19,874 nt of DNA from Breznakia blatticola (GTDB lineage: Bacteria > Bacillota_I > Bacilli_A > Erysipelotrichales > Erysipelotrichaceae), in assembly GCF_004365815.1 (NCBI RefSeq), contig NZ_SODD01000046.1, positions 1 to 19,874 on the forward strand, given 5' to 3'. The translations under genes and the position numbers were made by a program. Under the pieces are notes generated by a model. It was not told the origin of the DNA. It saw nothing but the letters and a program-made list of their open reading frames with translations, and made no database searches. Numbering within the stretch: the stretch's first letter is position 1; the number at the start of each line of letters is the position of its first letter. Below, piece after piece: positions 2 to 19,874 of this stretch.

Positions 2-94
2 TACCTTCCTTATTTTTATATGGTAATCTTACATTTCAATGTATCATCATACATGTAACAATCTAAGTTAGGTGCGCATCGGTTGAATTAAGCC
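2..94. repeat. Left copy of a perfect 93-bp terminal inverted repeat. Probably the inward-facing end of an IS or transposon copy that continues beyond the window.
   Basis: I reverse-complemented 19782..19874 by hand and it matches 2..94 at 93/93 positions. Identity stops exactly at 94/19782. The outer end reads AAATAAGGAAGGTA, which looks like an SD, so a gene may start just outside the window. An internal ATGTAT-catc-ATACAT hairpin is present. Confidence 0.9.
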
Positions 95-448
95 TGATGG
101 TTTGTAATGTAAATCTGCAGCTGTCTTACGATAAAAACTAAAATCTCTTTCTCCATTAGCTGCTAATGATACAAATGCAAGCGACGTATCATAATCTTTA
201 CTTTGGTGTAGTTCACTTGTATCCACACCGACTTTTTGTAACGTTTCAACAATATGATCACCAAATGCATCTGCACCTACTTGACTTAAGATTTTAGCAT
301 GACCTCCAAGTTTAGCAACTGCACCTGCTACATTGGTTGGTGCTCCACCAACGACTCGATGAAAATTTTCAACATCTTTAAGTCGACACCCTTTTTCTAC
401 TGGGATAAAATCAATTAACGCTTCTCCGATTGCACATAGATTTTTCAT
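68..448 (-). pseudogene. Truncated PfkB-family sugar kinase (fructokinase-like). Only the N-terminal ~118 codons remain, fused to 8 repeat-encoded codons and a stop.
   Basis: MKNLCAIGEALIDFIP...GGAPTNVAGAVAKLGG is a typical PfkB N-terminus. A GAGGAG SD lies upstream of the ATG at 448. The kinase reading frame runs into the inverted repeat at 94 and ends GLIQPMRT*. Full-length family members are roughly 300 aa. Confidence 0.8.
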
Positions 449-476
449 AACGATACTCCTCAATCCTTTTTATTTA

Positions 477-5383: not shown

Positions 5384-6140
5384 TAGAGATGTCACCTCCT
5401 AATAAGGTAACAACTTCAATGATTTGATCAAAAAACTGTTTACGACTTTGATTTCCTTTGTAGATTTCATTGAAGATCTTCCCATCTTTAATAAATAATA
5501 TACGATCACAGAAACTTGCAGTAAACGTATCATGTGTAACTAGTAAGATGGTACTGTTATACTCTTTATTTAACTTTTCTAATGATTCAAGTAACATTCG
5601 ACTTGATTTACTATCTAATGCTCCTGTTGGTTCATCTGCTAAAATCAAACTTGGATTATGAACCAAAGCACGTGCAGCAGCAACTCTTTGGCGTTGTCCT
5701 CCTGACATTTGATATGGATATTTTGGAAGTACTTCTTCAATATCTAATTTCTTTGCAACTTCTTTTACTTGTGCATCAATCTTCTTTGGATTTACCTTTT
5801 GAATCGTCAATGCTAGTGCAATATTTTCAAATGCTGTTAGTGTATCAAGTAAGTTAAAGTCTTGGAAAATAAATCCCAATTGTTCGCGACGAAATTTACT
5901 TAGCTTTTGTTTTTTCAATTCTGTAATATTTGTATCATCAATTACAATATTTCCACTTGTTACTTTATCAATAGTAGACACACAGTTTAATAAGGTTGTC
6001 TTTCCAGATCCACTTGGACCCATGATTCCAACGAATTCACCTTCGTTTATATCAAAGGTAATTCCGTCAATTGCCTTTGTTAAGTTATCCTTATTCCCAT
6101 AATATTTCTCAATATTTTGAACATTTAATACTTGTTTCAT
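5373..6140 (-). CDS. ABC transporter ATP-binding protein (BceA/MacB-like), 255 aa.
   Basis: Walker A GPSGSGKTT, signature MSGGQRQR, Walker B LILADEPT. An AGGAGGAG SD precedes the ATG. Confidence 0.95.
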   Translation of the reverse strand: MKQVLNVQNIEKYYGNKDNLTKAIDGITFDINEGEFVGIMGPSGSGKTTLLNCVSTIDKVTSGNIVIDDTNITELKKQKLSKFRREQLGFIFQDFNLLDTLTAFENIALALTIQKVNPKKIDAQVKEVAKKLDIEEVLPKYPYQMSGGQRQRVAAARALVHNPSLILADEPTGALDSKSSRMLLESLEKLNKEYNSTILLVTHDTFTASFCDRILFIKDGKIFNEIYKGNQSRKQFFDQIIEVVTLLGGDISNVL

Positions 6141-6184
6141 TATGTTCTCCTCCTGTATGTAACTATCATAAACTTTCTATCTTT

Positions 6185-6229
6185 AGTATACACGCGAACT
6201 ATCTTACACTTTCCTTACATTTTTGTAAG
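6185..6229 (-). promoter_or_regulatory. Bce-type response-regulator box plus -10 element upstream of the ABC transporter genes.
   Basis: The minus strand reads CTTACAaaaaTGTAAG (6214..6229), a third half-site TGTAAG (6203..6208), and then TATACT (6185..6190). The inverted repeat fits the TNACA-N4-TGTAA type of site that I recall being reported for BceR-like regulators. Confidence 0.6.
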
Positions 6230-6254
6230 AAAGAAAAAAGGTGCGATAGCACCT
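6227..6254 (-). terminator. Rho-independent terminator after the small DUF6440-like gene.
   Basis: Stem AGGTGC-tatc-GCACCT, followed on the minus strand by TTTTTTCTTTC. Confidence 0.75.
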
Positions 6255-6457
6255 CACTGATGAGAATCAATTTCTCCCATCATATATTTTGTAATAACGA
6301 CATTCCCATGACTATCTAAGAGTGGTGTTAATCCACTTCCTTCAGGAGTATTGACCAATAAATAATTGACCCCCGTAATTTGATCTTCAAGAATACGGAT
6401 ACCTTGAAGTGTTGTTTCTTCGTGGACAATAACAAATCGTTCCTTATCTGTACGCAT
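6254..6457 (-). CDS. Small conserved hypothetical protein (DUF6440-like by recollection), 67 aa.
   Basis: MRTDKERFVIVHEETTLQGIRILEDQITGVNYLLV...GLTPLLDSHGN. The ATG at 6457 is preceded by an AGGAGGA SD. The longer track ORF overlaps the upstream gene and is rejected. Confidence 0.7.
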   Translation of the reverse strand: MRTDKERFVIVHEETTLQGIRILEDQITGVNYLLVNTPEGSGLTPLLDSHGNVVITKYMMGEIDSHQ

Positions 6458-6465
6458 GATTCCTC

Positions 6466-6654
6466 CTAGTGAAATAAAATAAAGTAGATAACATAGACCC
6501 AACCAAGCAAACCGTGAACGATTGCCCAACCAATACTATGCCATGTTGTATAGCTTATCACCATTGCTAGTGCACTACCAAAGGACAATCCTTGTTTGAT
6601 CGTCTTATTCACAATTGTTGTTTTGCCATCTGCACGGCGTTCATATTCTGACAT
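6466..6654 (-). CDS. Small hydrophobic membrane protein of unknown function, 62 aa.
   Basis: One or two predicted TM segments (FGSALAMVISY..., IGWAIVHGLLGWVYVIYFILF). An AGAGGAGAAG SD is present. The gene is tightly packed between the HK stop and the next gene's SD. Confidence 0.6.
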   Translation of the reverse strand: MSEYERRADGKTTIVNKTIKQGLSFGSALAMVISYTTWHSIGWAIVHGLLGWVYVIYFILFH

Positions 6655-6665
6655 AGCTTCTCCTC

Positions 6666-7679
6666 TTACAATAAGTTTTTATAAAATCGACTATTGGGAA
6701 TTGTTATACTCACACAAGTACCTTTATGTACTGTACTATCTAGTCGTATAGACATATAAAGCTTGTCACATAACGCTTTACATAAATACAATCCCATACC
6801 TGTTGCTTTCTTTTCCAATCGTCCATTTTCACCAGTAAATCCACGATCAAATACTCGAGAAACATCTTTTGGATCAATTCCTATTCCTGTATCTGAAATA
6901 CGCACTTCAAGATCTTGATCATGTACTACAGTATCAATATGGATAGATCCACCAACATCTGTATACTTTAATGCATTATCTAATATCTGATGCAAAATGA
7001 ATTCTAACCATTTACTATCCATCGTGATCATGTGATCACTATTCGTAATTGATAATTTAATTTCTTTATAAATGAATCGCTGCTTTAAACGACGTACAGC
7101 TGCATTGATACTATCACTAAGCTGGATTTCTTTTAATACATAATCGCGTGAAGGATCACTACTTTTTGCATAATATAAAGCTTGCTCAATATAATCATTC
7201 ATCCGCTCGATTTCCAAGTCCAAAGCTTTACTTATTCCACTTGGATGATTGGTATTCATCAATTTCGCAGCGGTCAATGGACTTTTTATCTCATGAATCC
7301 ACATTTCGATATATTCTTTATAATCTTTTTCACGTTTCTCATATGTTGCAATTCGATCATTGTAGTTTTTATTAATTTCTTCTAAGGTTTGATATAGAAT
7401 TCTACCTTCTTGAAATTCTGGTTCATCAATAACTTCGATTAATAAACTTTTTTGATCCAGTCGTTCCAACTGGTCTTTAAGTTGTTTATAGTACCCATTT
7501 TTTTGTCGATACTCAATAAATAAAAAGCCAAAGATAAATGACCATATACTAACAAGAAAAAGTATAACGGTATCTATGCTTAGTTTAGAAGCAAGTAAAA
7601 AGAATCCTTGCAACGCACTTAACAATGCACCTAAAACTAAAATATAAAAATGCTCTTTTAGATATGTATACTTACTCAT
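6666..7679 (-). CDS. Intramembrane-sensing histidine kinase (BceS-like), 337 aa.
   Basis: Two N-terminal TM helices are separated by a very short loop. An H-box (IHEIKSPLTAA) and HATPase_c motifs (DNALKYT, DTGIGI, GTGMGL) are present. There is an 8-nt overlap with the RR gene. Confidence 0.92.
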   Translation of the reverse strand: MSKYTYLKEHFYILVLGALLSALQGFFLLASKLSIDTVILFLVSIWSFIFGFLFIEYRQKNGYYKQLKDQLERLDQKSLLIEVIDEPEFQEGRILYQTLEEINKNYNDRIATYEKREKDYKEYIEMWIHEIKSPLTAAKLMNTNHPSGISKALDLEIERMNDYIEQALYYAKSSDPSRDYVLKEIQLSDSINAAVRRLKQRFIYKEIKLSITNSDHMITMDSKWLEFILHQILDNALKYTDVGGSIHIDTVVHDQDLEVRISDTGIGIDPKDVSRVFDRGFTGENGRLEKKATGMGLYLCKALCDKLYMSIRLDSTVHKGTCVSITIPNSRFYKNLL

Positions 7680-8343
7680 TAATTAAATACCCCATACCAC
7701 GTTTTGTTTCAATAAAGTTTTCCAAATCAATATATGCAAGTTTCTTGCGTAGACGATTCATGTTTACCGTTAAGGCATTATCATCCACAAACATATCACT
7801 ATCCCACATCTCCGACATCAACTCTTCACGTAAAACAATACGATTTTTATGTTTGAATAATGTCGTCATAATGCGCAGTTCATTTTTTGTGAGTTCAATA
7901 CTTTGTTTATTGTAAGTAAGTGTACTTTTTGCGACGTCCAGTTGGACACCCGCAACAAATAATTTACTACCATTATCCCCTTCATAGCTACGATTTAATA
8001 ATCGTTCCATGCGTGCAAGTAAAATTTGTAAGTTATATGGTTTTGAGACAAAATCATCTGCGCCCATATGCATACTCATCAACTCATCTAAATCTGTATT
8101 ACGACTGGTAACAATGATCATTGGTACATTGCTTTGCTTACGTACTTCTTTGGCAATATGATTCCCATCAATACCCGGCAAGTTCAAATCAAGCAAAATC
8201 AAGTGTACATCACTATCAAGAATTTGCTTGCTCACATCACAAAAATCCACAACGGTTTGGACATCATATCCATTGGTTTGTAGAAACGTTGCAAGTTCAT
8301 CACGAATATTAATTTCATCTTCAACAATTAAGATTTTATACAT
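7672..8343 (-). CDS. OmpR-family response regulator (BceR-like), 223 aa.
   Basis: A receiver domain (MYKILIVEDE..., LILLDLNLPGIDG) is followed by a winged-helix C-terminus (TKNELRIM...ETKRGMGY). I chose the start at MYKILIV (ATG at 8343). No SD is visible. Confidence 0.88.
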   Translation of the reverse strand: MYKILIVEDEINIRDELATFLQTNGYDVQTVVDFCDVSKQILDSDVHLILLDLNLPGIDGNHIAKEVRKQSNVPMIIVTSRNTDLDELMSMHMGADDFVSKPYNLQILLARMERLLNRSYEGDNGSKLFVAGVQLDVAKSTLTYNKQSIELTKNELRIMTTLFKHKNRIVLREELMSEMWDSDMFVDDNALTVNMNRLRKKLAYIDLENFIETKRGMGYLINE

Positions 8344-8370: not shown

Positions 8371-8399
8371 AAAGCGACAAAAACGAGCATTCGCTCGTT
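8371..8399 (-). terminator. Rho-independent terminator after tethered sigma gene 1.
   Basis: Stem AACGAGC-gaat-GCTCGTT (8382..8399), followed on the minus strand by TTTGTCGCTTT. Confidence 0.65.
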
Positions 8400-8402
8400 C
8401 TC

Positions 8403-9716
8403 TCATGATTCATCATGTAATGTAATCTCTAACTCATTTCCTGCATAATCAGAAATATAAAGTACACCTGTTACTCCATATGGACAAGTTAGAATCATTT
8501 GATTCAATGATGGATGTATCGTTATTTCTTTGTTGATACGTACTCCATTTTCATAATAGCGAATACTTTCAAAGTTAACTTGTGATGCATCATCAGAAAC
8601 ATAAATTGTATACGTTGTTCCATCAATTTCATACCCTTGAACTACCGGACTATGCATATCAAATGTAGAAATACTCACGATTCGCTCATCAATTTGTTTG
8701 CCATCCTTCATTAGAGTTACACTATAACTTCCATTACTTGCGATGACTAGACTCTCTTGATTATTCACAAGAATTTGATCATACTCCATATTGGATGTAG
8801 TTACAGTTAGTGTAATTGGCTGATTTGTCCAATTTGTTGGATGCTGAATATCTGTAATACTTGCGAGTTCTTGTACAACAGGTTGTACATCTTGTATTTC
8901 AGGTGCTACTGCTGGCTGTTTTTCTTCTTGATTTAACATGATTGCACCTACAACACCACTTACTCCAATCGTGGAAGCAAGTGCAATTTTTGCCCCTACA
9001 CCAATTCCTACTTTACTTCCTGCTGCTGCACTTCCTACACCTATTGCACTTGTTTGTAATGCGAGATTGATCACTGGAGCATGAATATTCTTTGCTGCTG
9101 AAGCATATGCAACTTGAATTAGCATTGGTGAAATTGCAAATCCCGGTAATGATTTTGCACTAATCCCCTGTTTTTCCAACATTACTTTTAGTTTACTACG
9201 AAGATGATTCAATCGTGAATATACCGTACCTTCAGGTATTTGTAAAATGTATGCAATCTCACTTACTTGAAGTTCATCATAGTATCGCAAGAGTGCAACA
9301 TTTCGTAATGACGCATTTAAAGAATGAATGCAATTATATACGATTGCTTGCATCTCTTTATTCTCTATGATTTCTTTTGCTGTTTGTTGATTTACATCTT
9401 CGAAATCTTCCACGCGAACATCATCTCCTAAATCCAGTAGTTTCTTTTTCTTACGCTCATAATCATGGCAAATATTCATTGTAATACGTTTCATCCAAGT
9501 ATAGAATGCTTCAGGACTCTCCAATGTATCAATCTTGTTGTAAATACGGATAAATACATCTTGAACAACATCTTTTGCTGTATGTTCATTATGAAAATAA
9601 TCCCATGCTGTAAAATATACATTGTTTGCATATATCTCGTACAATTTCTGAAATGCCTCTTGATCGTTTTGCTTAACTCGATTCACTAACTCTACTACTT
9701 CTCTTTTCTCTTTCAT
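8403..9716 (-). CDS. Membrane-tethered ECF-type sigma-70 family protein (sigma region 2 + region 4, TM segment, ~175-aa extracytoplasmic domain), 437 aa.
   Basis: Region 2 reads DVVQDVFIRIYNKI...FYTWMKRITMNICHDY. The region 4 HTH reads LLRYYDELQVSEIAYILQIPEGTVYSRLNHLRSKLK. A Gly/Ala-rich TM segment lies at about 8934..9002, followed by a beta-rich C-terminal domain. The ATG at 9716 follows GAGGGGTG. Confidence 0.85.
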   Translation of the reverse strand: MKEKREVVELVNRVKQNDQEAFQKLYEIYANNVYFTAWDYFHNEHTAKDVVQDVFIRIYNKIDTLESPEAFYTWMKRITMNICHDYERKKKKLLDLGDDVRVEDFEDVNQQTAKEIIENKEMQAIVYNCIHSLNASLRNVALLRYYDELQVSEIAYILQIPEGTVYSRLNHLRSKLKVMLEKQGISAKSLPGFAISPMLIQVAYASAAKNIHAPVINLALQTSAIGVGSAAAGSKVGIGVGAKIALASTIGVSGVVGAIMLNQEEKQPAVAPEIQDVQPVVQELASITDIQHPTNWTNQPITLTVTTSNMEYDQILVNNQESLVIASNGSYSVTLMKDGKQIDERIVSISTFDMHSPVVQGYEIDGTTYTIYVSDDASQVNFESIRYYENGVRINKEITIHPSLNQMILTCPYGVTGVLYISDYAGNELEITLHDES

Positions 9717-9810
9717 CGAACACCCCTCACACAAACTACCAGTTCTAAATCTTTTTCTTTCATACAATTATGTCGCTACCCAAATGGATGAAAGAATTAT
9801 GTAGTATTTG

Positions 9811-9839
9811 ACACAAAACGAGGCAAATGGTTATGCCTC
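9811..9839 (-). terminator. Weak terminator-like hairpin between the LRR gene and sigma gene 1.
   Basis: Stem GAGGCA-taaccatt-TGCCTC followed by GTTTTGTGT on the minus strand. The stem is short, so read-through is plausible. Confidence 0.4.
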
Positions 9840-9860
9840 ATTTTGCGCTGCCCATAATAT

Positions 9861-11267
9861 TTAGTTTTCTTTCTTTTTCTTAATTGCGATTGCACCAATG
9901 GCAACACCACTAATCAATAAAGTGTATAGAAGTGTATTTGTTGTATATACATCACCAGTTGCAACACTTGGTTTACTTGATAATCCTTTCGATGGATCAT
10001 TTACTGGTTCAGTTGGTGTCGGTTTAACTGGATCCACTGGTTTTACTGGATCAATTGGATCTATTGGATCAACTGGGTCCACTGGATCGATTGGATCGAC
10101 AGGGTCAACAATCGGTGGTTGTTTTATACTAACCTTGGATACGATAAACATATACTCTTCTCTTTTTGCATCATCACCAACTACATACCCATCTGGAGAA
10201 AATAGTCTTTGTGGGCGAACTTTAATTTCATCAACTCTGTAGTAATAGTTTAGTGCTTCTAGTTCAGCGGCACGTAAAATAAAACTATGTTTATCTAGTA
10301 CTTCCCAATTACAATCTTCGTGTAATTCAACTTTATTCATATTAATACCATCAATAGTTACTACATACCCATCATCTGTTTCGTCAGCAATTAAATCAAT
10401 TACATTCGACTTTATCGCAAAATCTGCTTTTGTACTTCTATCATAGAATCTGTACTGTACGGGATCACCACCAATTTCCAAAAATGGAAATTGATTTCCA
10501 CCTAATATAACTGATAAATAATCATAATTTGAATCTGCCAGAAAATACGGATTACTAAAAAGAGTATTAAGAATTCCAACCGTATGAACATCAGATAAAT
10601 CGAAATATTCATCTGTGATTGGAACACTTTCAATATCTATAGAACCAGTCACCTTAACTGCACCGTTAATACTCGTAAGTTTTGGTAATGAAGATAATGA
10701 AAATACATCAATTTCACTTTCTTCATGTAGTATCAACGATGAAAGACTATCCATCGCCCATAAATTTAATTCTCCTATTTCACGCATATGTGAAACATCA
10801 ACACTTGTAACATTAGGAACTACAGACAATGTTAAATAATACATGAAATCTAGTGCATCTAAATTTACTGTCTTAAGATCATCTGTTTCATATACTTCTA
10901 AGGCATTTAGTTTGCTTCCTTCAGGTATTACTAAATTTGAACCTTTAAAATGCCCTAAAGTAAGAGATTTTGTCTCCAGTAATTCAATTCCTTTGAAATC
11001 ACGAATATCATATTCATCGCAATCAATATCTAGATCTTTAAATGGATTATTGGTTGCAAGTTCTTCCTTTGTGATGATACCATCACTTGCAATTTCTTTA
11101 CTTTCTACATAACTTCTAAAATTTGCATCAGGAAAATTTTCCTTTGTAACATGCACATCACTATCTACAACATTCATAGGTTGTAATGTTTCCAAATGTT
11201 GTACATTTGGTTGCATGATTCCTAGTGATAATGAAATCATGGCTACTGTTTTCAATACTAAATTCAT
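9861..11267 (-). CDS. Cell-wall-anchored leucine-rich-repeat surface protein with a Pro-x-Asp stalk, 468 aa.
   Basis: It has a signal peptide (MNLVLKTVAMISLSLG...), LRR-like ~22-aa periodicity in the region L..L.L....L..VD.S, and a PVDPIDPVDPVDPIDPIDPVKPVDPVKP stalk. The C-terminus carries SVATGD, a hydrophobic segment and KKKKEN. An AGGAGGAG SD precedes the ATG at 11267. Confidence 0.85.
   Translation of the reverse strand: MNLVLKTVAMISLSLGIMQPNVQHLETLQPMNVVDSDVHVTKENFPDANFRSYVESKEIASDGIITKEELATNNPFKDLDIDCDEYDIRDFKGIELLETKSLTLGHFKGSNLVIPEGSKLNALEVYETDDLKTVNLDALDFMYYLTLSVVPNVTSVDVSHMREIGELNLWAMDSLSSLILHEESEIDVFSLSSLPKLTSINGAVKVTGSIDIESVPITDEYFDLSDVHTVGILNTLFSNPYFLADSNYDYLSVILGGNQFPFLEIGGDPVQYRFYDRSTKADFAIKSNVIDLIADETDDGYVVTIDGINMNKVELHEDCNWEVLDKHSFILRAAELEALNYYYRVDEIKVRPQRLFSPDGYVVGDDAKREEYMFIVSKVSIKQPPIVDPVDPIDPVDPVDPIDPIDPVKPVDPVKPTPTEPVNDPSKGLSSKPSVATGDVYTTNTLLYTLLISGVAIGAIAIKKKKEN
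10021..10110. repeat. Ten tandem 9-bp units (GGATCNAYT-like) encoding the P-x-D stalk.
   Basis: Units read directly from the sequence: ggtttaact ggatccact ggttttact ggatcaatt ggatctatt ggatcaact gggtccact ggatcgatt ggatcgaca gggtcaaca. Confidence 0.85.
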
Positions 11268-11464
11268 TCCTTCTCCTCCTGTTAATATTTTATTAACCAC
11301 ACAACAATCCTTAACACTTTCTTGCACACGGATAGCAACGAGATCGATTATTCATATTAAGGATCCAAGAATATTCAGTTGAATATTTCTTTCAATACAT
11401 AGACGTAGCACATTTCGCTAACCATCAAACTTTTTTTACTTTTTATCAGCTCCTTACTTTTGCA

Positions 11465-11497
11465 TATAAAAAAACAGCTCGCACAATTTTGAACTGT
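11465..11497 (-). terminator. Terminator-like hairpin inside the sigma2-LRR intergenic region.
   Basis: Minus strand reads ACAGTTC-aaaattgtgc-GAGCTGT (one G-U pair), followed by TTTTTTTAT. Confidence 0.55.
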
Positions 11498-11717
11498 TTG
11501 TAAGGTTAAGCTATATTTGTCTAATTATACCGATATGACAAAAACTGTAATTTGGATAGACTAAAAAAATCCCTATTACATTACTTTCCATTATTGGCAC
11601 ATATACACATAGAGTACACACATACTCTACTTTCATAGTAAACAAGAAAATGAAAACTGTAAAGAAAAAGGATAGATATCTTTATTGTGATATTTTATGT
11701 ATGTTATAGATAATCCA

Positions 11718-11860
11718 GCAAAAAGAAAACAGCCTTTGCGTTCAGGGTAGCAAAAGACTGTTCTCCAACTTCGTTTATGTGTGATGGAAGTTTTGAAGGT
11801 ATGATTTTCCCTCTTGTATCACCCTTCACTTATTAGACGCTTTTTATAACGTATATCTTC
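11718..11860 (-). ncRNA. Copy A of a ~140-nt repeated two-hairpin element (candidate sRNA or 3'-UTR element), ending in an intrinsic terminator.
   Basis: It is colinear with copies B and C: GAAGAT...GTCTA.TAAG.GAAGGGT...CCTT..ACTTC[CA-rich loop]GAAGT, then a second hairpin CAGTCTTTTGC/GCAAAGGCTG (11731..11760) and TTTTCTTTTTG. It starts 16 nt after the sigma-2 stop codon. Confidence 0.45.
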
Positions 11861-11876
11861 AAAAAAGTTTGTTTTT

Positions 11877-13208
11877 TTATCCATTACCATCCCGGAGTAC
11901 CAATTTTAGCTCGTTTCCAGCATGATCATAGATGTAGACAATCTCTCTACTTCCGTATGCGCAATCAAGCGAAATGGTATTTGTTGATGGATCAAAACGA
12001 ATGTCTTTTTGAATATACTTCCCGTCTTTCTCACATACCGTTTGTGAGAAATCAATTCCGGATAGTGCATCAGCTAATGTAATCGTATATGATGTTTGGC
12101 TAATTGTATAATCAGGTACTGTTGGACTTGCAAAATCAAAGTTTTCAATACTTACTCTTTGCTCATCAATTTGTTTTCCTTCATACATCAAAGTGACTAC
12201 ATATTCACCATTATCTACAACTGTTAAATCTTGATTTCCATTAAGTAGTATTTCATCATATACATCACTTGTCGTTGTTACTTGCAAAGTGTATGCCGTA
12301 TTCGTCCAAGCCGTTGGATATGTAATATCTTTTATTTTTGCATGTTCTTTTACTGCAGTTGCTGGTTGTTGAACAATTGGATCTGGGTGATTATCTTCTA
12401 ATGGCGCACTTTGTGGTTGATTAAAAAAGTATAATCCTACTAAACTTGCTACACCAACAGTGGAAACGAGTGCTACCTTAGTTGATGCCATCCACCCAGA
12501 TTTCGTACTTGCCGTTGTTAATGCTTCTTTACTTACTCCAATAAGCGCAGCAGAAGACATAGTTACAGGAACTGAAATATGATTTGCACCAGCTTCAAAA
12601 GCAAGTTTCAATAACGTCGGAGTTAATACAAAACCTGACAAACTACGAGAAGATATCCCTTGTTCTTCAAGTACTTCTTTTAACTTTGCCTTCATACTAT
12701 GTAATCTAGAATGTACAGTTCCTTCAGGAATTTGTAATACATCAGAAATCTCAGAAACCGATAGTTCATCATAATATCGAAGAATTCCAACCGTACGAAG
12801 TGGTGTACGTAACGATTGTATCCCTTCATATATGGTTTGTTGAAGTTCTTTATTTTCTAAAATTGCGCTAGCATCTTTTTGATTGAAGTCCTCAAAGTCT
12901 TCTATTGTATATTCACTTCCCAAATCTACTACCTGGTCTTTCTTTTTATCATAGTCATAACATACATTATAGGTAATTCGAATAATCCAAGTATAAAATG
13001 CACCTGGATTATCTAATTTATGAATGTTTTTATGTATTCGAATAAACACATCTTGAACAACATCACGTGCAGTCACTTCATCATGAAAATAGTTTAGCGC
13101 TTTGAAATACACATTATTTACATACGCTCGATATAGTTCTTCAAATGCTTCTTGGTTTCCTTCTTTTACCTTCACTATCAGGTCTTTTAATTTCTCTTTA
13201 TCTTTCAT
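11877..13208 (-). CDS. Membrane-tethered ECF-type sigma-70 family protein, paralog of 8403..9716, 443 aa.
   Basis: The architecture and block-wise sequence conservation match those of 8403..9716 (DVVQDVFIRIH..., LRYYDELSVSEISDVLQIPEGTVHSRL). The TM segment lies at about 12423..12491 and the C-terminal domain is homologous. I chose the ATG at 13208, ~9 nt after AAGGAA. Confidence 0.85.
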   Translation of the reverse strand: MKDKEKLKDLIVKVKEGNQEAFEELYRAYVNNVYFKALNYFHDEVTARDVVQDVFIRIHKNIHKLDNPGAFYTWIIRITYNVCYDYDKKKDQVVDLGSEYTIEDFEDFNQKDASAILENKELQQTIYEGIQSLRTPLRTVGILRYYDELSVSEISDVLQIPEGTVHSRLHSMKAKLKEVLEEQGISSRSLSGFVLTPTLLKLAFEAGANHISVPVTMSSAALIGVSKEALTTASTKSGWMASTKVALVSTVGVASLVGLYFFNQPQSAPLEDNHPDPIVQQPATAVKEHAKIKDITYPTAWTNTAYTLQVTTTSDVYDEILLNGNQDLTVVDNGEYVVTLMYEGKQIDEQRVSIENFDFASPTVPDYTISQTSYTITLADALSGIDFSQTVCEKDGKYIQKDIRFDPSTNTISLDCAYGSREIVYIYDHAGNELKLVLRDGNG

Positions 13209-13394
13209 TTCACACATTTCCTTGATTTATTTTATTTATAACGGCATAGCGCCACTTCACTAATTATTGCTACCCTTCAAATCGAATATCATGTATCGAA
13301 TAATAGAAATTTTGTCCCCCTTAGTCTTTGATATAGCTTTAGCTTTCAATGTTGGTAAGGAGGACATTTCATTTATGTTAAGAAATATTTATGT

Positions 13395-16300
13395 TTATTT
13401 CTTTTGTAGTTTCTTGCGTGCAAATAATAAGCAAATAACAAACCCGCTCATCATTACACAAGCAAGTAATGCATTAGCTGCACTTACATCACCTGTTTTC
13501 ACACTTGGAATCACATCTAATTCCTTCACTGGAGATGTTGATGGTAATTCTGTAAATGGATCTTCAGGTTTTTCTGGTGTTGGTGGAGTTTCTTTTGGAT
13601 CTTCCACTTTCTTCGTATTATATGCTTTTACAACAATCACACCAGTTGTATCTTTTGTAACTTCAAATTCTACATTGGTTGCATCTAATACATATCCTTC
13701 AGGTGCTCCTACTTCTTTAAAGTAGTATGAACCTTCTGGTAAGTCTTTTACTTCAATGCGTCCATCTGCATTTGTTGTATATACCTCATCATTTACTTTT
13801 GTTGCATTTCCTTTTTCATCTACAACGTATAGATCAAATTCAGCACCCTCTAATGTAATCGCTTCATTACTATCTGTATCATACTTAATTAACTCTACAT
13901 CTGCAACATTTGGTGGAGTTTTCGTATTGTATGCTTTTACGATGACTTTCGTATTTGTGTTTTCATCAATTTCAAACATCACTTTTGCATCATCTAAGTC
14001 ATATCCATTTGGTGCTTTTACTTCTTTAAAGTAATATGAACCTTCAAGTAGATCTTCAACTGTGATTTTTCCATCTTTATCTGTAACATATGGAGTTGTG
14101 TTTACTTTCGTATCACCATTAGTAGCATCCACGACATATAAATCAAATTCTGCTCCTTCTAATGTTACTGATTCATTTGTATCTGCGTCATATTTAATCA
14201 GTTGAACATCTTCTGTATGTGGTGGGATTTTTTTATTATATGCTTTCACTTGCATCGTTGCTTTATCATCTTTGCTGATTGTAAATGGAATATGTTTGTC
14301 ATCTAGCTCATATCCTGAAGGAGCTTTTACTTCTTTAAAGTAATATGAACCTTCAAGTAAATCATTTACTTCGATTTCACCATACATATTTGTTGTGTAT
14401 GGTGTGCTATTCATTTTTGTATCACCATTATTATCCACTAGATATAAATCAAACTCAGCACCTTCAAGCGTAGTTGTTTCATTGCTGTCTAGATCATATT
14501 TTGTTAATTCTACACCACCAGTATATATTTTTTGGTTATACACAGTTGTATACACAACCTTTTGTGCATTTGCTTGTTCGATAACTTCAAATACAATCGG
14601 TTCATTAGACTCTACACCATTGTGTTGATAAACCGCACCGCTCATTTCATAATTTGGTGCTGCTTTTACTTCCTTCCAATAGTAGTAACCATCTTCAAGT
14701 CCACTAACAGTAATCATTCCCCAACTATTTGTAGCTCTCTTTGCAACGAGTGTATCACTACTACTTGGTGTTGTTCCATTTGCTACTTTATATAATTCGA
14801 ATTCTGCATTTGCGATAGTCAGTTGATTCTCTTCATCTTTAGTTGCTAAATCGTATTTATACAGTCCAGCACTTCCTTTTGCACCACCAATAATGGTTCC
14901 ACTATATTCGCTAAACGAAAGTTTAATCTCATTTGATTGCTCACTATTGTTGTTCCAGTATAAGTGTGCTTGATTCGTATATTCTGCACCTTCTGCCATT
15001 CCCTCAGGAAATCTTGCTTTAAAGTTTACACGGTATGCAGGAATTACATAATCAACAGCTGCTAACTCTTTATCTAAATACTCAGCTTGTTTATCTGTAT
15101 AGTAACGGTATTTTACGTCTACACCATTTTCCTCTTTTTCATACGTTAATGTCTTTAAATATGCCAAGAATTTACTATCACCGTTTGTTGGTTCTTGCGC
15201 CTTTACTGCTGGTAAATCTGTGAACTTAGCACCAACATATGATTTACTCGTTGGATCTTTATCTCCTAAATCACCAAAATAAACTATCATTGTTGTTTTA
15301 TCTAAACCGTTTGTATCTTTTTCACGATATAAAACAAGCGATTGACGATCCACATTCTCTAAAAATGCTGCCTTAAATTCATCATAGCTTAGACCAGTTG
15401 CAAATGAATAGTTATCATTTAACTTTAATGTCTCTGTACTGTCTTTATGATATTCGACTTTATCAAAGATACCTCTGGTATCTGCTCCATTTGTTTTATC
15501 TTCTGTATATAAAGCATACCATGCATATTGGCGATCTGAATATGCTCCTATTCCACCATTGTCAATATTTCGTTCTTCATAATCCAATTCATTTCCATCT
15601 TTATCTGTAGTCGCAAATACACGCATAATATGTTGAATTGAAATGGAATCAATTGTTTGGTTATAAGTCAATTCATCTTCCATGTACATTTTTGCACGTG
15701 CATTTGTAATTTTTCCAGACTCATCTTTTCTTCCATTGTATAAAGATATATTGTAATCTACACCTAAGTTAATCGTCCAACTTGTATACCCTTCTTTCTC
15801 ATAGAAGACACCTTCTTTTGAGATTTTTGTAGAATTATCATATGGATTTGCCCCAGTATCTTCAACTGGTTGTTTTTCTGGTGTTTGAATGTTACCTCCA
15901 TCAAGAATCGCATTACCATTGATTACAAGTCCTGAATCTAAACCATTTCCAATAATTTTACCTTCTGCACTTACTGATCCACCTTTAACTACATATGGAC
16001 TATTTGGATCTTCTCCAGCAGGAAGTTCTAAAATTGTAATTGCAATTGTTGTTGTTCCCGTTTTGTCATCTGTTTTAATGGTAAATTCTGCAATTTTATT
16101 ATTCGATCCATCATATAATGGAAATGATTTATCTGCAGTATCAAATACAAGTCCAAACCCTTGACCTGGTACTTTCGAATTATTAATTTCTTCAATTACA
16201 AATTTAAATGTATCGCCTTCTTTAAGCAAATTATCACCATCTGTAACATTTGTATATAAAGCTTCCCAAGCAATATTTAGTCTAACTTGACTATAGTTTT

Positions 16301-16517
16301 TTACTTGATAATTACCTTCTAGGTCAACCAAATCTTTGATATCCACAAAATTTAGTCCATTTGTTACTTCCACAGTTACCGTTGGTGCTTTAATCTTGTG
16401 ATATGCATTACCGTAATCTACATCACCTTCTGCTGCTAGTGCTGTTCCACCACTAGCAAATATCATGTTAATCATCATAAAAGCCGCTAATAAAACACTA
16501 AAAAATTTCTTCTTCAT
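13395..16517 (-). CDS. Large cell-wall-anchored adhesin: signal peptide, ~510-aa N-terminal adhesin region, four SpaA/Cna-B-like (prealbumin-fold) repeats and a sorting signal, 1040 aa.
   Basis: The signal peptide ends ...GTALA|AEG. The repeats carry LEGAEFDLY.VD...G.I.V.DL.EGSYYFKEVKAP.GY. The C-terminus carries PSVKTGD, a hydrophobic segment and RKKLQKK. An AAGGAGA SD is present. Confidence 0.9.
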   Translation of the reverse strand: MKKKFFSVLLAAFMMINMIFASGGTALAAEGDVDYGNAYHKIKAPTVTVEVTNGLNFVDIKDLVDLEGNYQVKNYSQVRLNIAWEALYTNVTDGDNLLKEGDTFKFVIEEINNSKVPGQGFGLVFDTADKSFPLYDGSNNKIAEFTIKTDDKTGTTTIAITILELPAGEDPNSPYVVKGGSVSAEGKIIGNGLDSGLVINGNAILDGGNIQTPEKQPVEDTGANPYDNSTKISKEGVFYEKEGYTSWTINLGVDYNISLYNGRKDESGKITNARAKMYMEDELTYNQTIDSISIQHIMRVFATTDKDGNELDYEERNIDNGGIGAYSDRQYAWYALYTEDKTNGADTRGIFDKVEYHKDSTETLKLNDNYSFATGLSYDEFKAAFLENVDRQSLVLYREKDTNGLDKTTMIVYFGDLGDKDPTSKSYVGAKFTDLPAVKAQEPTNGDSKFLAYLKTLTYEKEENGVDVKYRYYTDKQAEYLDKELAAVDYVIPAYRVNFKARFPEGMAEGAEYTNQAHLYWNNNSEQSNEIKLSFSEYSGTIIGGAKGSAGLYKYDLATKDEENQLTIANAEFELYKVANGTTPSSSDTLVAKRATNSWGMITVSGLEDGYYYWKEVKAAPNYEMSGAVYQHNGVESNEPIVFEVIEQANAQKVVYTTVYNQKIYTGGVELTKYDLDSNETTTLEGAEFDLYLVDNNGDTKMNSTPYTTNMYGEIEVNDLLEGSYYFKEVKAPSGYELDDKHIPFTISKDDKATMQVKAYNKKIPPHTEDVQLIKYDADTNESVTLEGAEFDLYVVDATNGDTKVNTTPYVTDKDGKITVEDLLEGSYYFKEVKAPNGYDLDDAKVMFEIDENTNTKVIVKAYNTKTPPNVADVELIKYDTDSNEAITLEGAEFDLYVVDEKGNATKVNDEVYTTNADGRIEVKDLPEGSYYFKEVGAPEGYVLDATNVEFEVTKDTTGVIVVKAYNTKKVEDPKETPPTPEKPEDPFTELPSTSPVKELDVIPSVKTGDVSAANALLACVMMSGFVICLLFARKKLQKK
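13614..14876. repeat. Intragenic tandem repeats encoding the SpaA/Cna-B-like domains. Three units have a 309-bp period and a fourth is more divergent.
   Basis: The marker string acttctttaa recurs at 13711, 14020 and 14329, which gives exact 309-bp spacing. The antisense shadow ORFs on the plus strand repeat the same peptide (YP.GA.TSLK). Confidence 0.85.
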
Positions 16518-16671
16518 AACTTGTCTCCTTATCTTTCACACATACAATTCACACACTGACCAAGTTTGTAATTCACTGCCTACTTTGCTTACACATTCAA
16601 AGTGCAACGAGAGTTCCATATCCTAGAAATCTATCTTTGAAGTCATCTACACAAACAGTTATCTATCAAAA

Positions 16672-16717
16672 CACTAAAAAAGAGTGTCTATGCTATGTTG
16701 AACAACAAGACACTCTT
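16672..16717 (-). terminator. Strong rho-independent terminator ~155 nt upstream of the large adhesin start codon.
   Basis: Perfect 10-bp stem AAGAGTGTCT/AGACACTCTT (16680..16689 and 16708..16717), followed on the minus strand by TTTTTAGTGTTTTG. Confidence 0.8.
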
Positions 16718-16834
16718 AAAAAATGTTGCCATTTTTCACCTAGAGAGTTTCCTTACCCACACATAACACACTGATATTTACACACTTTAACTCAATTTTG
16801 TATATCTTTCCCACTCCACACAAGTTCAAGTATT

Positions 16835-16976
16835 GAAAAGCAACCTTTAATTTTGAAGATTGCTTTCAGACTTCAAATTAAATGTGTGTATGGAAGTCCT
16901 GAAGTTCAACTCTTTATTTTCTTTTTTCTATGAGTATCGCTTCATTTATATAGACTTCAATTTTTCTAAAATCTTC
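16835..16976 (-). ncRNA. Copy B of the ~140-nt repeated two-hairpin element. It has its own upstream promoter, and its second hairpin lacks a U-tract.
   Basis: GAAGATTTT...GTCTAtaTAAatGAAgcgaTACTCA...GACTTC[catacacacatttaattt]GAAGTC, followed by GAAAGCAA/TTGCTTTTC. It is colinear with A and C. Confidence 0.45.
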
Positions 16977-16981
16977 GGAAA

Positions 16982-17010
16982 TTTATAATTTTTTTTCATT
17001 TTTTATTCAA
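16982..17010 (-). promoter_or_regulatory. Candidate sigma-A promoter (TTGAAT-N17-TATAAA) driving element B.
   Basis: On the minus strand, TTGAAT is at 17005..17010 and TATAAA at 16982..16987, with a 17-nt spacer. The predicted TSS falls at the GAAGAT where the A/B/C homology begins. Confidence 0.5.
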
Positions 17011-17061
17011 ATTTAATACCATTACTATTTGATTGATAGTTTTGATTGTTGTAAGGTGTAT

Positions 17062-17097
17062 TTCAATCAAAACAAAAGAACAATTTCTCGTTCTTTT
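17062..17097 (-). terminator. Rho-independent terminator downstream of the Cna-type adhesin gene.
   Basis: Stem AAAAGAAC-gagaaatt-GTTCTTTT followed by GTTTTGATTG on the minus strand. Confidence 0.7.
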
Positions 17098-17107
17098 TAA
17101 AATATAT

Positions 17108-17151
17108 AATCGTATCTTATTATCATATTTAACAGTATATAAGATACGATT
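17108..17151. other. Perfect 13-bp inverted repeat with an 18-nt loop, function unknown.
   Basis: aatcgtatcttat (17108..17120) pairs with ataagatacgatt (17139..17151). It lies ~100 nt after the Cna gene stop codon. Confidence 0.7.
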
Positions 17152-17253
17152 GTTATTGTCCACTAAGTTACATTATATAACAATTAGTTATAACTAAATA
17201 AACATATTGTTAATAACCTATAGTTTTAAACGTGAGAGTAACACTCATGTTTC

Positions 17254-19506
17254 TTATACTTTGCGTCTTCTACGAATTGCTACTAGTATACATAGAGATA
17301 TCCCACTAACAATCATCATTGCATATAGTATCGCTTTTGGACTTTGATCACCAGTACTCACTTTGCTTGAGGATACCACTGATGGATTAATAAGCAATTC
17401 CTTCTCTGGTTTCTTTGAAGGATTTGCTGGTGTCACAATTTCGGGTTGTTTAATCACTGGTGTTTCTACTACTGGTGGTTGTTCTATCATTGGATCTTCT
17501 GGTACAACAACTTCCTTCTTGTACGTATTAATAATCGTAAAATCCGTTTCTGTATTTTTTATTACTTTGGATGTATAGTTATTTGCTACTTCAAGTTCCA
17601 CAACTGTATAGGTTACCGATTTCCCATTAACTAACAACGGTAAATCATTCCATGTATATGTCCAATGATCTTGTTTTGTCACTATTGCATCAAATGTCGC
17701 AATTGCTACATGTTCATCTGTAGACTGAATCAGTTGAACCTTGATTTCATCAGGACGAATATCTAAATCATCATTCTCCCATTCTTTACTTACTGAAATG
17801 GATGTAAGTGGAAGTTTATATGTATTGGTAATTGTATAGTCATTTTTTGCATGTTCCTCAACACTTGCTGTGTAATTTTCTGCTACATGAATTTCATTTA
17901 CCGAATATGTAACTTCTTTATTTCCTTGAAAAGCAGGTAAATCATCCCATTGATATTCCCACACATTGTTGAGATCTTTTTCTATTTTTACGGTGTCCAC
18001 AATTGATGTATTTCCATCAACTGATTTTTGTAATTGCACTTCAACAAATGATGGACGTACCCACTGATCATCATCACCAGCCCACTTCTTAGTTACATGT
18101 ACACTGGTTCTTGGTACTTGATACGTATTTACAATCGTGAAATTATTAAATGAATTTTCAATTACTGTCTCAGTATAGTTATTTGGTACACTTGCTTCAT
18201 GTACTGAATATGTTACATATGTAGTACCTTCCAGCATTGGTAAATTGGTGAACTCATATTGCCATTGATTTTTTGCATTCAAATCAATTTGACCAATTTG
18301 CACTGGGCTTCCACCTTTTAGTGTTTTGTATAAATTCACAGTTACAGTTTCTGGATGTGTAATTTCTGGATCATCACTTTCCCATACTTTATGAACTTTC
18401 ACGCTAGTTGATGCATCACCAGAACCAACTCCACCAGTTACAAGACGTTGATCATATGCTTCGATTGTCCCAGATTCATAGTTATCTCCTTCAATCGTAG
18501 CTTTATTTAAATAGATTTGTGAAACTTTATTGTCTAAGATGCGTGTAGAATACTTAATATATAAAGATTTTCCATCCGCTTTCGCTTCTTGTTTTGTTGC
18601 TTCATCATTTGGGGTAAATACTCCACCGTTTTCTGGTAATGCTGTGGATGCACCACTAACAAGATTACCCAAATGTACTGTAAATCCATCACTTTGAAGT
18701 ACAAATCGCTCTGGATTTGTATTTGATGTATAGTATCCAAAATACTTCCAAGATGATGCTCCTTTATCATTCCAATCAATACGTGCGACTTGCACTGTGA
18801 TTGCTGGCTTTGTTGGATCATCTACTACAAGTTCATGTTTTCCAATAATTTCATCAATGACACTCGCATTGTAAATATCCTCAGCAGCAACATTTACACG
18901 AATCGTCCAATCGATAGTATTGGTTGTCGTATTCGCTGTTCCCCACTTTGTGATTTTTTCATCACGTGGTTCATAATTTGCTTTACCTACCCAAACATCT
19001 TGACTACTTGTATCACTGAATTGAAGTACAAGATCTTCAGCACCTGCTACTTCATTGCGATCCCATGATGCAACAACAAAAAAGTATCCTTTACGATTCT
19101 GCTTATTCTTAAAATAATCATTGAATGTAATGGTAATACTCTTATCTGATGCATTCATACTTGCATTTGCAACTACAATTTCCGTTTCATTATTTTCTGC
19201 GTCAATTTCTTTAAGCTCAAATTCAAGATTTTTCACACTTAATTGCGAAGGTAGTTGAATAACTACAGTATCTCCACTATTTACTTCATAAGTATCATCA
19301 AATGCATATTCATAATACACACGCATCGAATCATAGTATCCATAGTATTGACTATCTTCACCTGTATACGTTGTTACTTTTCCACTTACGATAAAATCGT
19401 TTTGTGAAATGCTACCTTGTGCTTCTGTAGCTAGTATTTTTCCCGTGTACGAGAACATTCCTGCAAGCACAAAAAAAACTACCACAATTTTACTTATTTT
19501 CCTCAT
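17254..19506 (-). CDS. Cna-type collagen-adhesin-like surface protein: signal peptide, collagen-binding-type A region, three Cna-B repeats, Pro-rich stalk and a sorting signal, 750 aa.
   Basis: The A region has SGDTVVIQLPSQL and IDWTIRVNV. The Cna-B repeats read V.K.W..DD...RP..V.V.L......W.Y.W.DLP......V.Y.V.E..V...Y. The C-terminus carries KVSTGD, a hydrophobic segment and RRRRKV. An AAGGAGGAA SD is present. Confidence 0.92.
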   Translation of the reverse strand: MRKISKIVVVFFVLAGMFSYTGKILATEAQGSISQNDFIVSGKVTTYTGEDSQYYGYYDSMRVYYEYAFDDTYEVNSGDTVVIQLPSQLSVKNLEFELKEIDAENNETEIVVANASMNASDKSITITFNDYFKNKQNRKGYFFVVASWDRNEVAGAEDLVLQFSDTSSQDVWVGKANYEPRDEKITKWGTANTTTNTIDWTIRVNVAAEDIYNASVIDEIIGKHELVVDDPTKPAITVQVARIDWNDKGASSWKYFGYYTSNTNPERFVLQSDGFTVHLGNLVSGASTALPENGGVFTPNDEATKQEAKADGKSLYIKYSTRILDNKVSQIYLNKATIEGDNYESGTIEAYDQRLVTGGVGSGDASTSVKVHKVWESDDPEITHPETVTVNLYKTLKGGSPVQIGQIDLNAKNQWQYEFTNLPMLEGTTYVTYSVHEASVPNNYTETVIENSFNNFTIVNTYQVPRTSVHVTKKWAGDDDQWVRPSFVEVQLQKSVDGNTSIVDTVKIEKDLNNVWEYQWDDLPAFQGNKEVTYSVNEIHVAENYTASVEEHAKNDYTITNTYKLPLTSISVSKEWENDDLDIRPDEIKVQLIQSTDEHVAIATFDAIVTKQDHWTYTWNDLPLLVNGKSVTYTVVELEVANNYTSKVIKNTETDFTIINTYKKEVVVPEDPMIEQPPVVETPVIKQPEIVTPANPSKKPEKELLINPSVVSSSKVSTGDQSPKAILYAMMIVSGISLCILVAIRRRRKV
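17518..18411. repeat. Three tandem Cna-B domain-encoding repeats (~97-100 codons each).
   Basis: Protein repeats at aa 366-463, 467-563 and 568-663, counted by hand from the start at 19506. Confidence 0.75.
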
Positions 19507-19573
19507 GGTTCCTCCTTATAAAACACACTTTGGTTTCACACACCAATTGTCTCTTTCAAGACTCAGCGAGGCT

Positions 19574-19621: not shown

Positions 19622-19758
19622 TAAAACAAAAAGAAAAGCAATCCAGGTAGCATATGGATTGCTTTTCAAACTTCTTGGTGTGTGTGTGAAGTCCAAAAGG
19701 ATAACTCATATTGAGTACCCTTTCACCTTAATAGACTCTTTGAATAAAGAAAATCTTC
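19622..19758 (-). ncRNA. Copy C of the ~140-nt repeated two-hairpin element, ending in a strong intrinsic terminator.
   Basis: GAAGATTTT...GTCTAtTAAGgtGAAagGGTACTCA...GGACTTC[acacacacaccaa]GAAGTTT, followed by a perfect 13-bp stem GAAAAGCAATCCA/TGGATTGCTTTTC and TTTTTGTTTT. Confidence 0.5.
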
Positions 19759-19781
19759 ACTTTTTTCGATTATTTTATAAT

Positions 19782-19874
19782 GGCTTAATTCAACCGATGC
19801 GCACCTAACTTAGATTGTTACATGTATGATGATACATTGAAATGTAAGATTACCATATAAAAATAAGGAAGGTA
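19782..19874. repeat. Right copy of the perfect 93-bp terminal inverted repeat.
   Basis: Exact reverse complement of 2..94. It abuts AT-rich non-coding DNA whose sequence aligns with the promoter region of element B. Confidence 0.9.

Follow-up and report, generated by a model that had tools for sequence, protein, structure and literature searches.

Membrane-tethered ECF sigma factors with Ig-like ectodomains encoded beside sortase-type surface-protein genes in Breznakia blatticola and other Bacillota, and a repeated three-hairpin element that may encode a small RNA

The 19,874-nt contig NZ_SODD01000046.1 of the gut bacterium Breznakia blatticola (assembly GCF_004365815.1), called the window below, contains an island of genes for sortase-type wall-anchored surface proteins interleaved with two paralogous genes for tethered extracytoplasmic function (ECF) sigma factors, sigma-1 and sigma-2. 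These sigma factors belong to a family that appears to be a Bacillota variant, with immunoglobulin (Ig)-like ectodomains, of the sigma/anti-sigma hybrid proteins, and that is previously undescribed in the literature searched. Judging from gene order and partner type in related genomes, it is very probable that each of them forms a cognate pair with the adhesin encoded next to it. The surface-protein genes of the window are also preceded by copies of a short repeated element, which may specify a small RNA. All five open reading frames (ORFs) of the island are located on the minus strand, and our ORF calls reproduced exactly the coordinates and strand given in an earlier note on this DNA, as well as the intergenic gaps of 186 bp (SpaA/sigma-2) and 144 bp (LRR-like/sigma-1). 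The ORFs are as follows:

17254..19506, minus strand: Cna-type wall-anchored surface protein, 750 aa, with signal peptide, Big_8, Collagen_bind and three Cna_B domains
13395..16517, minus strand: SpaA/pilin-like adhesin, 1040 aa, with four SpaA domains (Pfam) and the sorting signal PSVKTGD
11877..13208, minus strand: sigma-2, with ECF core (aa 1-190), linker, membrane helix (aa 245-263) and tandem Ig-like ectodomain (aa 290-440)
9861..11267, minus strand: divergent leucine-rich repeat (LRR)-like wall-anchored protein, 468 aa, with proline-rich stalk and the sorting signal PSVATGD
8403..9716, minus strand: sigma-1, of the same architecture as its paralogue sigma-2 and 48% identical to it over the full length

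Both sigma factors match the Pfam domains Sigma70_r2 and Sigma70_r4_2 within residues 1-195, and the presence of sigma2 and sigma4 only, without sigma3 or sigma1, identifies them as ECF (group 4) proteins. They score 96.5 and 95.0 bits against the NCBIfam model TIGR02937 (cut-off 42.9), no specific equivalog model reaches its cut-off, and the best matches are ECF models of the SigW, SigY and SigM types. The core is fused to a C-terminal extension with a membrane helix, as is typical of the hybrid ECFs: a linker of ~55 aa leads to one hydrophobic helix per protein (residues ~244-263), followed by ~180 residues that have no Pfam match and include the Ig-like ectodomain of ~150 aa. The position of the helix is conserved throughout the family, the most hydrophobic 19-residue window (Kyte-Doolittle 1.45-2.95) being found at residues 227-269 in 46 of 46 aligned members. 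The AlphaFold2 model of the ectodomain (predicted local distance difference test, pLDDT, 95) is all-beta and comprises two beta-sandwich domains; in the full-length model confidence is low at residues 211-286, i.e. in the linker and membrane region.

A word-indexed protein search with the C-terminal half of sigma-2 found nothing, and a sequence search of the PDB with an ectodomain profile returned noise only. On the other hand, a profile of both C-terminal halves, compared with 1.84 billion representative proteins, detected 127 clusters, nearly all of them of 420-455 aa and matching at the C-terminus, with an ECF core at the N-terminus of the family members tested. A few giant surface proteins bear repeats of the same kind as this profile. 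We also considered a domain common to the ectodomain and its cognate adhesin, an idea that was dropped since the ectodomains have no similarity to the neighbouring adhesins (E > 0.4). In the literature on tethered or membrane-bound sigma factors and on ECF sigma factors associated with sortase or adhesin, neither the family nor the cassette is described, and the tethered family is absent from the main text of an ECF classification paper (PMC7826278).

The known sigma/anti-sigma hybrid ECFs comprise IutY of Pseudomonas putida (ECF243) and the actinobacterial groups ECF48, ECF52 and ECF53, e.g. SCO4117 (PMC8999054). IutY is released by Prc and RseP, and its activation by regulated intramembrane proteolysis has been shown (PMC8999054). 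The Breznakia family resembles them in that a single polypeptide runs from the ECF core through a membrane span to a C-terminal part outside the cytoplasm, without a separate anti-sigma gene. It differs from them in its origin from Bacillota, in the linker devoid of a FecR-type or zinc-finger anti-sigma domain, in the ectodomain, which is tandem Ig-like rather than FecR or carbohydrate-binding, and in the partners, which are sortase-type surface proteins and not TonB receptors, while its proteolysis is putative, by analogy. The SigI/RsgI systems of Clostridium thermocellum (PMC4711584) are likewise sensor-sigma units present as multiple paralogues within one Gram-positive genome, with extracellular sensor domains and dedicated to surface components (there of the cellulosome). 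However, SigI is not an ECF sigma factor and RsgI is a separate protein with carbohydrate-binding ectodomains, whereas here the sigma factor and an Ig-like sensor are fused; no RsgI domain was found in sigma-1 or sigma-2 with Pfam or NCBIfam. SigI/RsgI is a functional analogue and not a relative.

The earlier note had proposed dedicated regulator/adhesin pairs and had made adjacency of the two gene types in other genomes one of the points on which this proposal would stand or fall. We sought related loci with an alignment of six ectodomain sequences and surveyed 20 tethered-sigma genes, i.e. 18 outside this strain and the two of the window. All except one (L022) adjoin a gene for a large secreted or sortase-type surface protein (19/20, three of these within a few genes), and they come from at least five separate sources: Breznakia, Erysipelotrichaceae MTC7, Coprobacillaceae, metagenome-assembled genomes (MAGs) of Clostridium, and Paraclostridium plasmids. 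A homologue 96% identical to sigma-2 is annotated in an unclassified Breznakia, and the closest distinct orthologue, that of MTC7, is 57% identical over the full length and 52% over the best ectodomain segment. Breznakia pachnodae alone has six tethered-sigma genes in three loci. The gene arrangements are:

MTC7: SpaA adhesin gene directly 5' of sigma
Coprobacillaceae MAG, locus 1: sigma, then VWA-like protein of 711 aa
Coprobacillaceae MAG, locus 2: sigma, then SpaA/Big_8 protein of 1039 aa
B. pachnodae: sigma, then FctA/SpaA protein of 1595 aa, with a gap of 2 nt
B. pachnodae: sigma, Flg_new protein of 549 aa, sigma, wall-anchored protein of 401 aa
B. pachnodae: sigma, LRR protein of 995 aa, FctA protein of 873 aa, sigma, sigma, LRR/Endotoxin_C2 protein of 712 aa
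Clostridium-type MAGs: Flg_new/Ig-like protein of 1576 aa or 1397 aa, then sigma; one locus also has a sortase gene
three further metagenomic contigs: sigma, then Ig-like proteins of >746 aa, >1279 aa and 3364 aa
three Paraclostridium plasmids: sigma next to, or within a few genes of, genes for Ig-like, DUF5011 and LRR proteins and sortase B

The adhesin gene precedes the sigma gene in the window lineage and the Clostridium MAGs and follows it in the others, and in several other genomes the two genes lie on the same strand with a gap of only 2-19 nt. Moreover, subclades of the sigma factors keep the type of partner across genera. Core and ectodomain are 61% and 57% identical, respectively, between the sigma factors of B. 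pachnodae and Coprobacillaceae that precede FctA/SpaA adhesins; the two sigma factors encoded before LRR proteins group together, and so do the two encoded before proteins with an N-T-M-D signal. Adjacency together with partner type kept within subclades supports the idea of cognate pairs spread through duplication of the cassette, and hence the earlier proposal of dedicated pairs. In Clostridium-type relatives we also noticed an ORF of 41-58 aa beside the tethered-sigma gene (L017 7503-7634, L018 7090-7236, L022 3330-3461, L020 6789-6965), often accompanied by an Rrf2-family regulator 5' of the giant surface gene; in these relatives the cassette may include this ORF as an additional part.

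The repeated element is present in the window in three copies on the minus strand, C (~19759-19625), B (16977-16832) and A (11861-11718), located 5' of the Cna, SpaA and LRR-like genes, respectively. A -35 box resembling GAAC and a -10 box resembling CGTC are the typical form of an ECF promoter. The motif GAAGAT-N13-18-GTCTA has three matches in the window, as compared with 0.05 expected, and all are at the elements, where the promoter takes the form TGAAGAT-N15/16-(C/A)GTCTAnTAAG:

19732..19759, minus strand: ECF-type promoter of element C, TGAAGAT-N-AGTCTA
19625..19731, minus strand: element C RNA, three hairpins, the second with CACACACACACC in the loop and the third a terminator with U-tail
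16951..16977, minus strand: ECF-type promoter of element B, matching the consensus
16832..16950, minus strand: element B RNA, three hairpins, CACACA loop at 16883-16888
11834..11861, minus strand: ECF-type promoter of element A, TGAAGAT-N15-CGTCTAAT, which begins 16 nt after the sigma-2 stop codon
11718..11833, minus strand: element A RNA, three hairpins, UCACACAUA loop at 11778-11783

The predicted RNA is ~110 nt long. Its first hairpin begins at RUGAAR, the second has the form ACUUC-loop-GAAGU with CACACA invariant in the loop, and the third is followed by a U-tract in all copies. MTC7 has three copies at matching positions, two of them in tandem 5' of SpaA and one directly 3' of the sigma gene; the latter (copy 3) has a textbook ECF promoter, TGAACC-N16-CGTCTTAAT, and one MTC7 copy precedes an unrelated DUF488 gene. 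The promoter consensus and the three-hairpin fold are both found in six of the six copies of Breznakia and MTC7. In their alignment 94.6% of the cells pair, compared with 39-57% in slid controls, and 8 of the 19 pairs show changes on both sides, these values being attained by 0-1 of 500 shuffles. Seven of the 13 pairs of the terminator stem have such changes, while the first hairpin differs in sequence in every copy and always keeps its pairing. The promoter, the hairpins and the CACACA loop are conserved between species whose sigma-2 orthologues share only 57% identity. No part of the window matched an Rfam family at E <= 1, and the element would be a new RNA family if the model presented below holds. 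The earlier note had recognized the repeat, and the repeat is real, but it was described as two copies that follow the Cna and sigma-2 genes, the arrangement at Cna being regarded as consistent with a cassette that had lost its sigma gene. There are three copies, the third being 5' of Cna; as each is a unit with its own promoter and terminator 5' of a surface gene, the loss of a sigma gene is without support.

It is fairly probable, from the motifs, that sigma-1 and/or sigma-2 drive the element promoters. In B. pachnodae a related motif stands 5' of every tethered-sigma gene that heads an operon, each motif being common to one sigma subclade: aATGAAC-N17-CGACTAAT in one, ATGAAC-N17-CTACAAAT together with GAAGGAT-N15-GTCTATAAGGGTG (a sigma-gene promoter match being GAAGGAT-N15-GTCTATAAGG) in another, and GTGAGAC-N16-CCGTCATAT in a further one, with GTGAGAT...AGTCCTATAT at the Coprobacillaceae orthologue. 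Such motifs ahead of the sigma genes are the usual signature of ECF autoregulation. In the window subclade the corresponding motif was found at the elements only.

The CACACA loop is complementary to GUGUG boxes. At the locus in the Breznakia sp. genome GCA_029893515.1, GUGUG occurs within 40 nt 5' of the start codon in all six cassette genes (VWA-like, Cna, SpaA, sigma-2, LRR-like and sigma-1) and in none of eight flanking genes (6/6 vs 0/8, Fisher p ~3e-4), and duplexes of the second-hairpin loop with positions -50..+5 have a mean energy of -16.1 kcal/mol for the cassette genes versus -7.4 kcal/mol for the others (Mann-Whitney p = 0.0007), both p-values being optimistic and indicative only, because the box had been noticed before testing. 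These duplexes were computed with loops only; those of the whole RNA gave huge interior loops. The boxes of the window are located in the 5' untranslated regions (5'UTRs) or at the ribosome-binding sites:

19523..19543, minus strand: GUGUG boxes in the Cna 5'UTR, at -37/-35/-22 relative to the ATG
16536..16556, minus strand: two GUGUG boxes in the SpaA 5'UTR, AAUUGUAUGUGUGAAA conserved in MTC7
13210..13216, minus strand: GUGUG box of sigma-2, between the ribosome-binding site and the ATG
11298..11303, minus strand: GUGUG box in the LRR-like 5'UTR
9727..9733, minus strand: GUGUG box of sigma-1, abutting the ribosome-binding site
16676..16822, minus strand: GUGUG-rich stretch between element B and SpaA, with a strong second terminator at 16676-16717

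The sigma box AUGUGUGA is also conserved in MTC7. The predicted duplexes include one of 10 bp between element C CACACACCAA and Cna UUGGUGUGUG, and one of 9 bp between element A UCACACAUA and SpaA UAUGUGUGA; at the level of computation, the element thus has the exposed seed characteristic of trans-acting small RNAs.

Several further features touch on the boxes. The terminator of the GUGUG-rich stretch consists of AAGAGUGUCU...AGACACUCUU followed by U6, and the same layout is seen in MTC7 (L004 6320-6425); the stretch might specify another small RNA or, by complementarity to the CACACA loop, act as a sponge. About 90 nt 3' of the element A terminator, a hairpin GUAGAGUA-UGUGUG-UACUCUAU (~11607-11628, minus strand) has UGUGUG in the loop and might engage the CACACA hairpin in a loop-loop interaction. 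In MTC7, two GUGUG boxes (L004 11375-11396) lie 5' of the ribosome-binding site of a gene for a sugar-binding lipoprotein (Peripla_BP_4), and the putative small-RNA regulon may therefore extend beyond adhesins. Finally, a block (A/C)TCTCGTTGC-N5-9-GTGT(G/A)..AAG is found ~100 nt 5' of SpaA and LRR-like (16630-16645 and 11335-11350, minus strand), and Cna has CCTCGCTGA directly after the -10 box; the TCTCGTTGC block and the Cna CCTCGCTGA may mark the 5' ends of the surface-gene mRNAs.

The model we favour, whose overall chances we put at about even, is that the one-component tethered sigmas direct the synthesis of a multicopy small RNA, which in turn acts as feedback on the translation of the surface proteins and of the sigma factors themselves. 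By analogy with IutY and ECF52 (PMC8999054), the sigma factor would stay inactive while tethered to the membrane. Once the Ig-like ectodomain registers an extracytoplasmic event, for which the earlier note had suggested an extracellular cue or the state of the cognate adhesin, regulated proteolysis would free the sigma core, which would then use the three local TGAAGAT-N15/16-(C/A)GTCTAnTAAG promoters. From each of them a ~110-nt three-hairpin RNA ending at the terminator hairpin would be started, whose CACACA loop would pair with the GUGUG boxes that the mRNAs of the surface proteins and sigma factors have at or just 5' of their ribosome-binding sites. The feedback would be post-transcriptional and most likely repressive, and a degree of read-through into the adhesin-sigma operon could add autoregulation. 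The chance that a trans-acting small RNA pairs with the GUGUG boxes seems to us to fall somewhat short of even. We regard as tentative, and rather more doubtful, the complete circuit, in which Ig-ectodomain one-component sigmas, each serving its neighbouring adhesin, are combined with a repressor small RNA acting on all adhesin and sigma mRNAs of the island in a negative feedback.

Parts of such a circuit have precedents. The MicA, RybB and MicL RNAs of the E. coli sigmaE regulon (PMC4102768) and FoxI of the Fusobacterium sigmaE regulon (PMC9546586) are small RNAs with an ECF-type promoter, an intrinsic terminator and exposed seeds complementary to translation-initiation regions of envelope-protein mRNAs, all of which are features predicted for the element; MicL (PMC4102768) further resembles element A in its location in the 3' region of a gene. 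Unlike them, the element is found in a Gram-positive host, has no sequence or Rfam relationship to them, and its proposed targets are wall-anchored adhesins and sigma genes. LhrC1-5 of Listeria monocytogenes (PMC4132741) are multicopy and partly tandem as well; they are induced by an envelope-stress sensor and repress the adhesin mRNA lapB via loop motifs (PMC4132741). However, LhrC depends on LisRK two-component control and UCCC motifs, in contrast to the ECF-type promoter and the CACACA loop of the element.

A number of observations weigh against the model. With a covariance model the element was detected in Breznakia sp. and MTC7 alone; the loci of B. pachnodae and Coprobacillaceae, scanned with filters off, yielded no copy, nor did those of the Clostridium MAGs and Paraclostridium, and a specific pattern of the element had no matches in the Joint Genome Institute (JGI) metagenomes. 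Its absence from the other loci of the family means that the RNA arm is lineage-specific and not family-wide. The best additional covariance match, in L008, was rejected, being a coding region with a terminator. The promoter assignment is a match to a consensus and fits neither sigma in particular. The seeds are short (7-10 bp), GUGUG and CACACA are of low complexity, and the overall count of TGTGTG in the window is not above chance, so that placement alone is non-random. As to the sensor, neither Pfam nor NCBIfam detects a FecR N-terminal or zinc-finger anti-sigma domain in aa 190-245, and AlphaFold predicts for the sigma-2 linker a single short low-confidence helix (aa 197-206); in the lack of a recognizable anti-sigma domain, tethering alone or some other control may apply. 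The ectodomain retrieves with Foldseek only generic tandem Ig modules of receptors and adhesins (TM-score 0.3-0.45), from which no ligand can be inferred.

The elements could also be 5' leaders: an ECF-dependent transcript would begin with the element, extend past the terminator hairpin and continue into the surface gene and the sigma gene, with CACACA pairing in cis with the GUGUG of the same mRNA to set its translation. ECF sigma factors are normally autoregulated, and without read-through the sigma genes of the window would lack the usual autoregulatory promoter. Between the elements and the genes the search detected no further ECF-type promoter; in the window lineage such promoters are located only 5' of adhesin-sigma units, and in B. 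pachnodae an ECF-type promoter stands directly 5' of a sigma-adhesin operon. On the other hand, every element closes with a stable hairpin and a U-tract, for which no upstream competitor of the terminator stem was seen, second terminators come after elements A and B, a sigma-70-like promoter (10/12 match, 19603-19574, minus strand) is present between element C and Cna, and MTC7 has two complete tandem copies as well as one copy before the unrelated DUF488 gene. For these reasons we favour a free small RNA and consider the leader unlikely, noting that the two roles could both be true.

Less likely still is that, in line with the control over surface proteins proposed in the earlier note, each sigma simply transcribes the neighbouring adhesin gene, and that the hairpins and boxes are irrelevant, the former being ordinary terminators and the latter chance occurrences of low-complexity sequence. 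The tight conserved pairing, with its short same-strand gaps in other genomes, and the unremarkable TGTGTG count would fit this explanation, but within the window the only ECF-type promoters 5' of SpaA, LRR-like and Cna are those of the elements, whose promoter, hairpins and loop are conserved despite the divergence of the sigma orthologues, and the placement of the boxes in six of six versus none of eight genes is hard to ascribe to chance. Very improbable, in our opinion, is the absence of any functional link, with sigma and surface genes merely sharing a variable genomic island that grows by duplication. The locus is indeed repetitive, rich in paralogues and bounded in the window by 93-nt inverted repeats, and the family includes L022; yet an accident of this sort would have to recur in at least five separate sources, plasmids among them, and does not accord with the partner types kept within sigma subclades.

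The choice of adhesins for display among many sortase-anchored proteins is poorly understood in Gram-positive bacteria outside a few pathogens. If the model is correct, a dedicated sensor-regulator beside each adhesin, with a single protein spanning the way from the cell surface to RNA polymerase, would make for a simple rule by which adhesins are controlled in Erysipelotrichales and Clostridia of the gut, Paraclostridium plasmids included, and a Bacillota branch with Ig ectodomains would join the short list of sigma/anti-sigma hybrids. An ECF sigma factor with a small-RNA repressor arm for wall-anchored proteins in a Gram-positive bacterium, none of which is described in the literature searched, would be the counterpart of the sigmaE-RybB/MicA/MicL arm.

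The three surface proteins of the window all have the sortase-type layout, with a signal peptide and, at the C-terminus, an xTGD motif followed by a membrane helix and a basic tail (KVSTGD, helix and RRRRKV in the Cna-type protein), and the same is true for most partner proteins at the other loci. Pfam bears out the earlier domain calls for the ECF, SpaA and Cna-type proteins. The LRR call is weak: the sole Pfam match, LRR_Zer-1, has E = 0.009, below the threshold, and a PDB sequence search returned noise only; the protein does exhibit an internalin-like FPDANFRSYV cap and repeats of ~22 aa. The sorting motif is the variant (S/V)-x-(T/A)-G-D, non-canonical with respect to LPXTG (window 9861-19506; loci L004-L009 and L014), or N-T-M-D in B. 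pachnodae. These unusual motifs of Erysipelotrichales proteins suggest a sortase with unusual specificity; no sortase gene is present within the window, and sortase genes adjoin members of the tethered-sigma family in L001, L018 and L019. The Breznakia sp. genome has the same gene order as the window plus a gene for a VWA-like surface protein (747 aa) 5' of Cna, with neither a sigma gene nor an element alongside.

With respect to transcription units, the earlier note had seen no convincing terminator in the SpaA/sigma-2 gap and a weak one in the LRR-like/sigma-1 gap, and had considered both pairs to be plausibly co-transcribed. The former gap indeed contains only a hairpin without a U-tract, and in the absence of a canonical terminator co-transcription of SpaA and sigma-2 is plausible. 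The terminator in the latter is stronger than had been judged, so that LRR-like and sigma-1 may not share one transcript:

9811..9848, minus strand: fairly good terminator in the LRR-like/sigma-1 gap, with A-tract, hairpin and U-tract (z = -2.5)
8379..8399, minus strand: intrinsic terminator directly 3' of sigma-1

The third hairpin of element A is the first terminator 3' of sigma-2 and, given the start of this element 16 nt past the stop codon, may double as the 3' end of the SpaA-sigma-2 mRNA.

The ends of the window (2-94 and 19782-19874) are perfect inverted copies of a 93-nt sequence that is absent from all 22 fetched loci. The left copy interrupts an ORF of a PfkB-type sugar kinase (463..68), and the right one stands where the Breznakia genome (L014) has the 3' end of the 747-aa VWA-like gene; they reflect either an assembly break at an inverted repeat, possibly the ends of an insertion sequence, or a fold-back artefact.

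A Bce-type module is located 3' of sigma-1 on the minus strand (3359-8343). The good terminator after sigma-1 makes this two-component/ATP-binding cassette (ABC) module a separate unit, and a link between the two was rejected, as the neighbourhood is also not conserved in MTC7. Its two-component part consists of a response regulator of the OmpR family and an intramembrane-sensing histidine kinase of 337 aa, and its ABC part of an ATPase and an FtsX permease of 678 aa. The module also includes two small ORFs, one of 62 aa and one for a DUF6440 protein, and it is followed by the gene for a P-type cation ATPase (553-3297).

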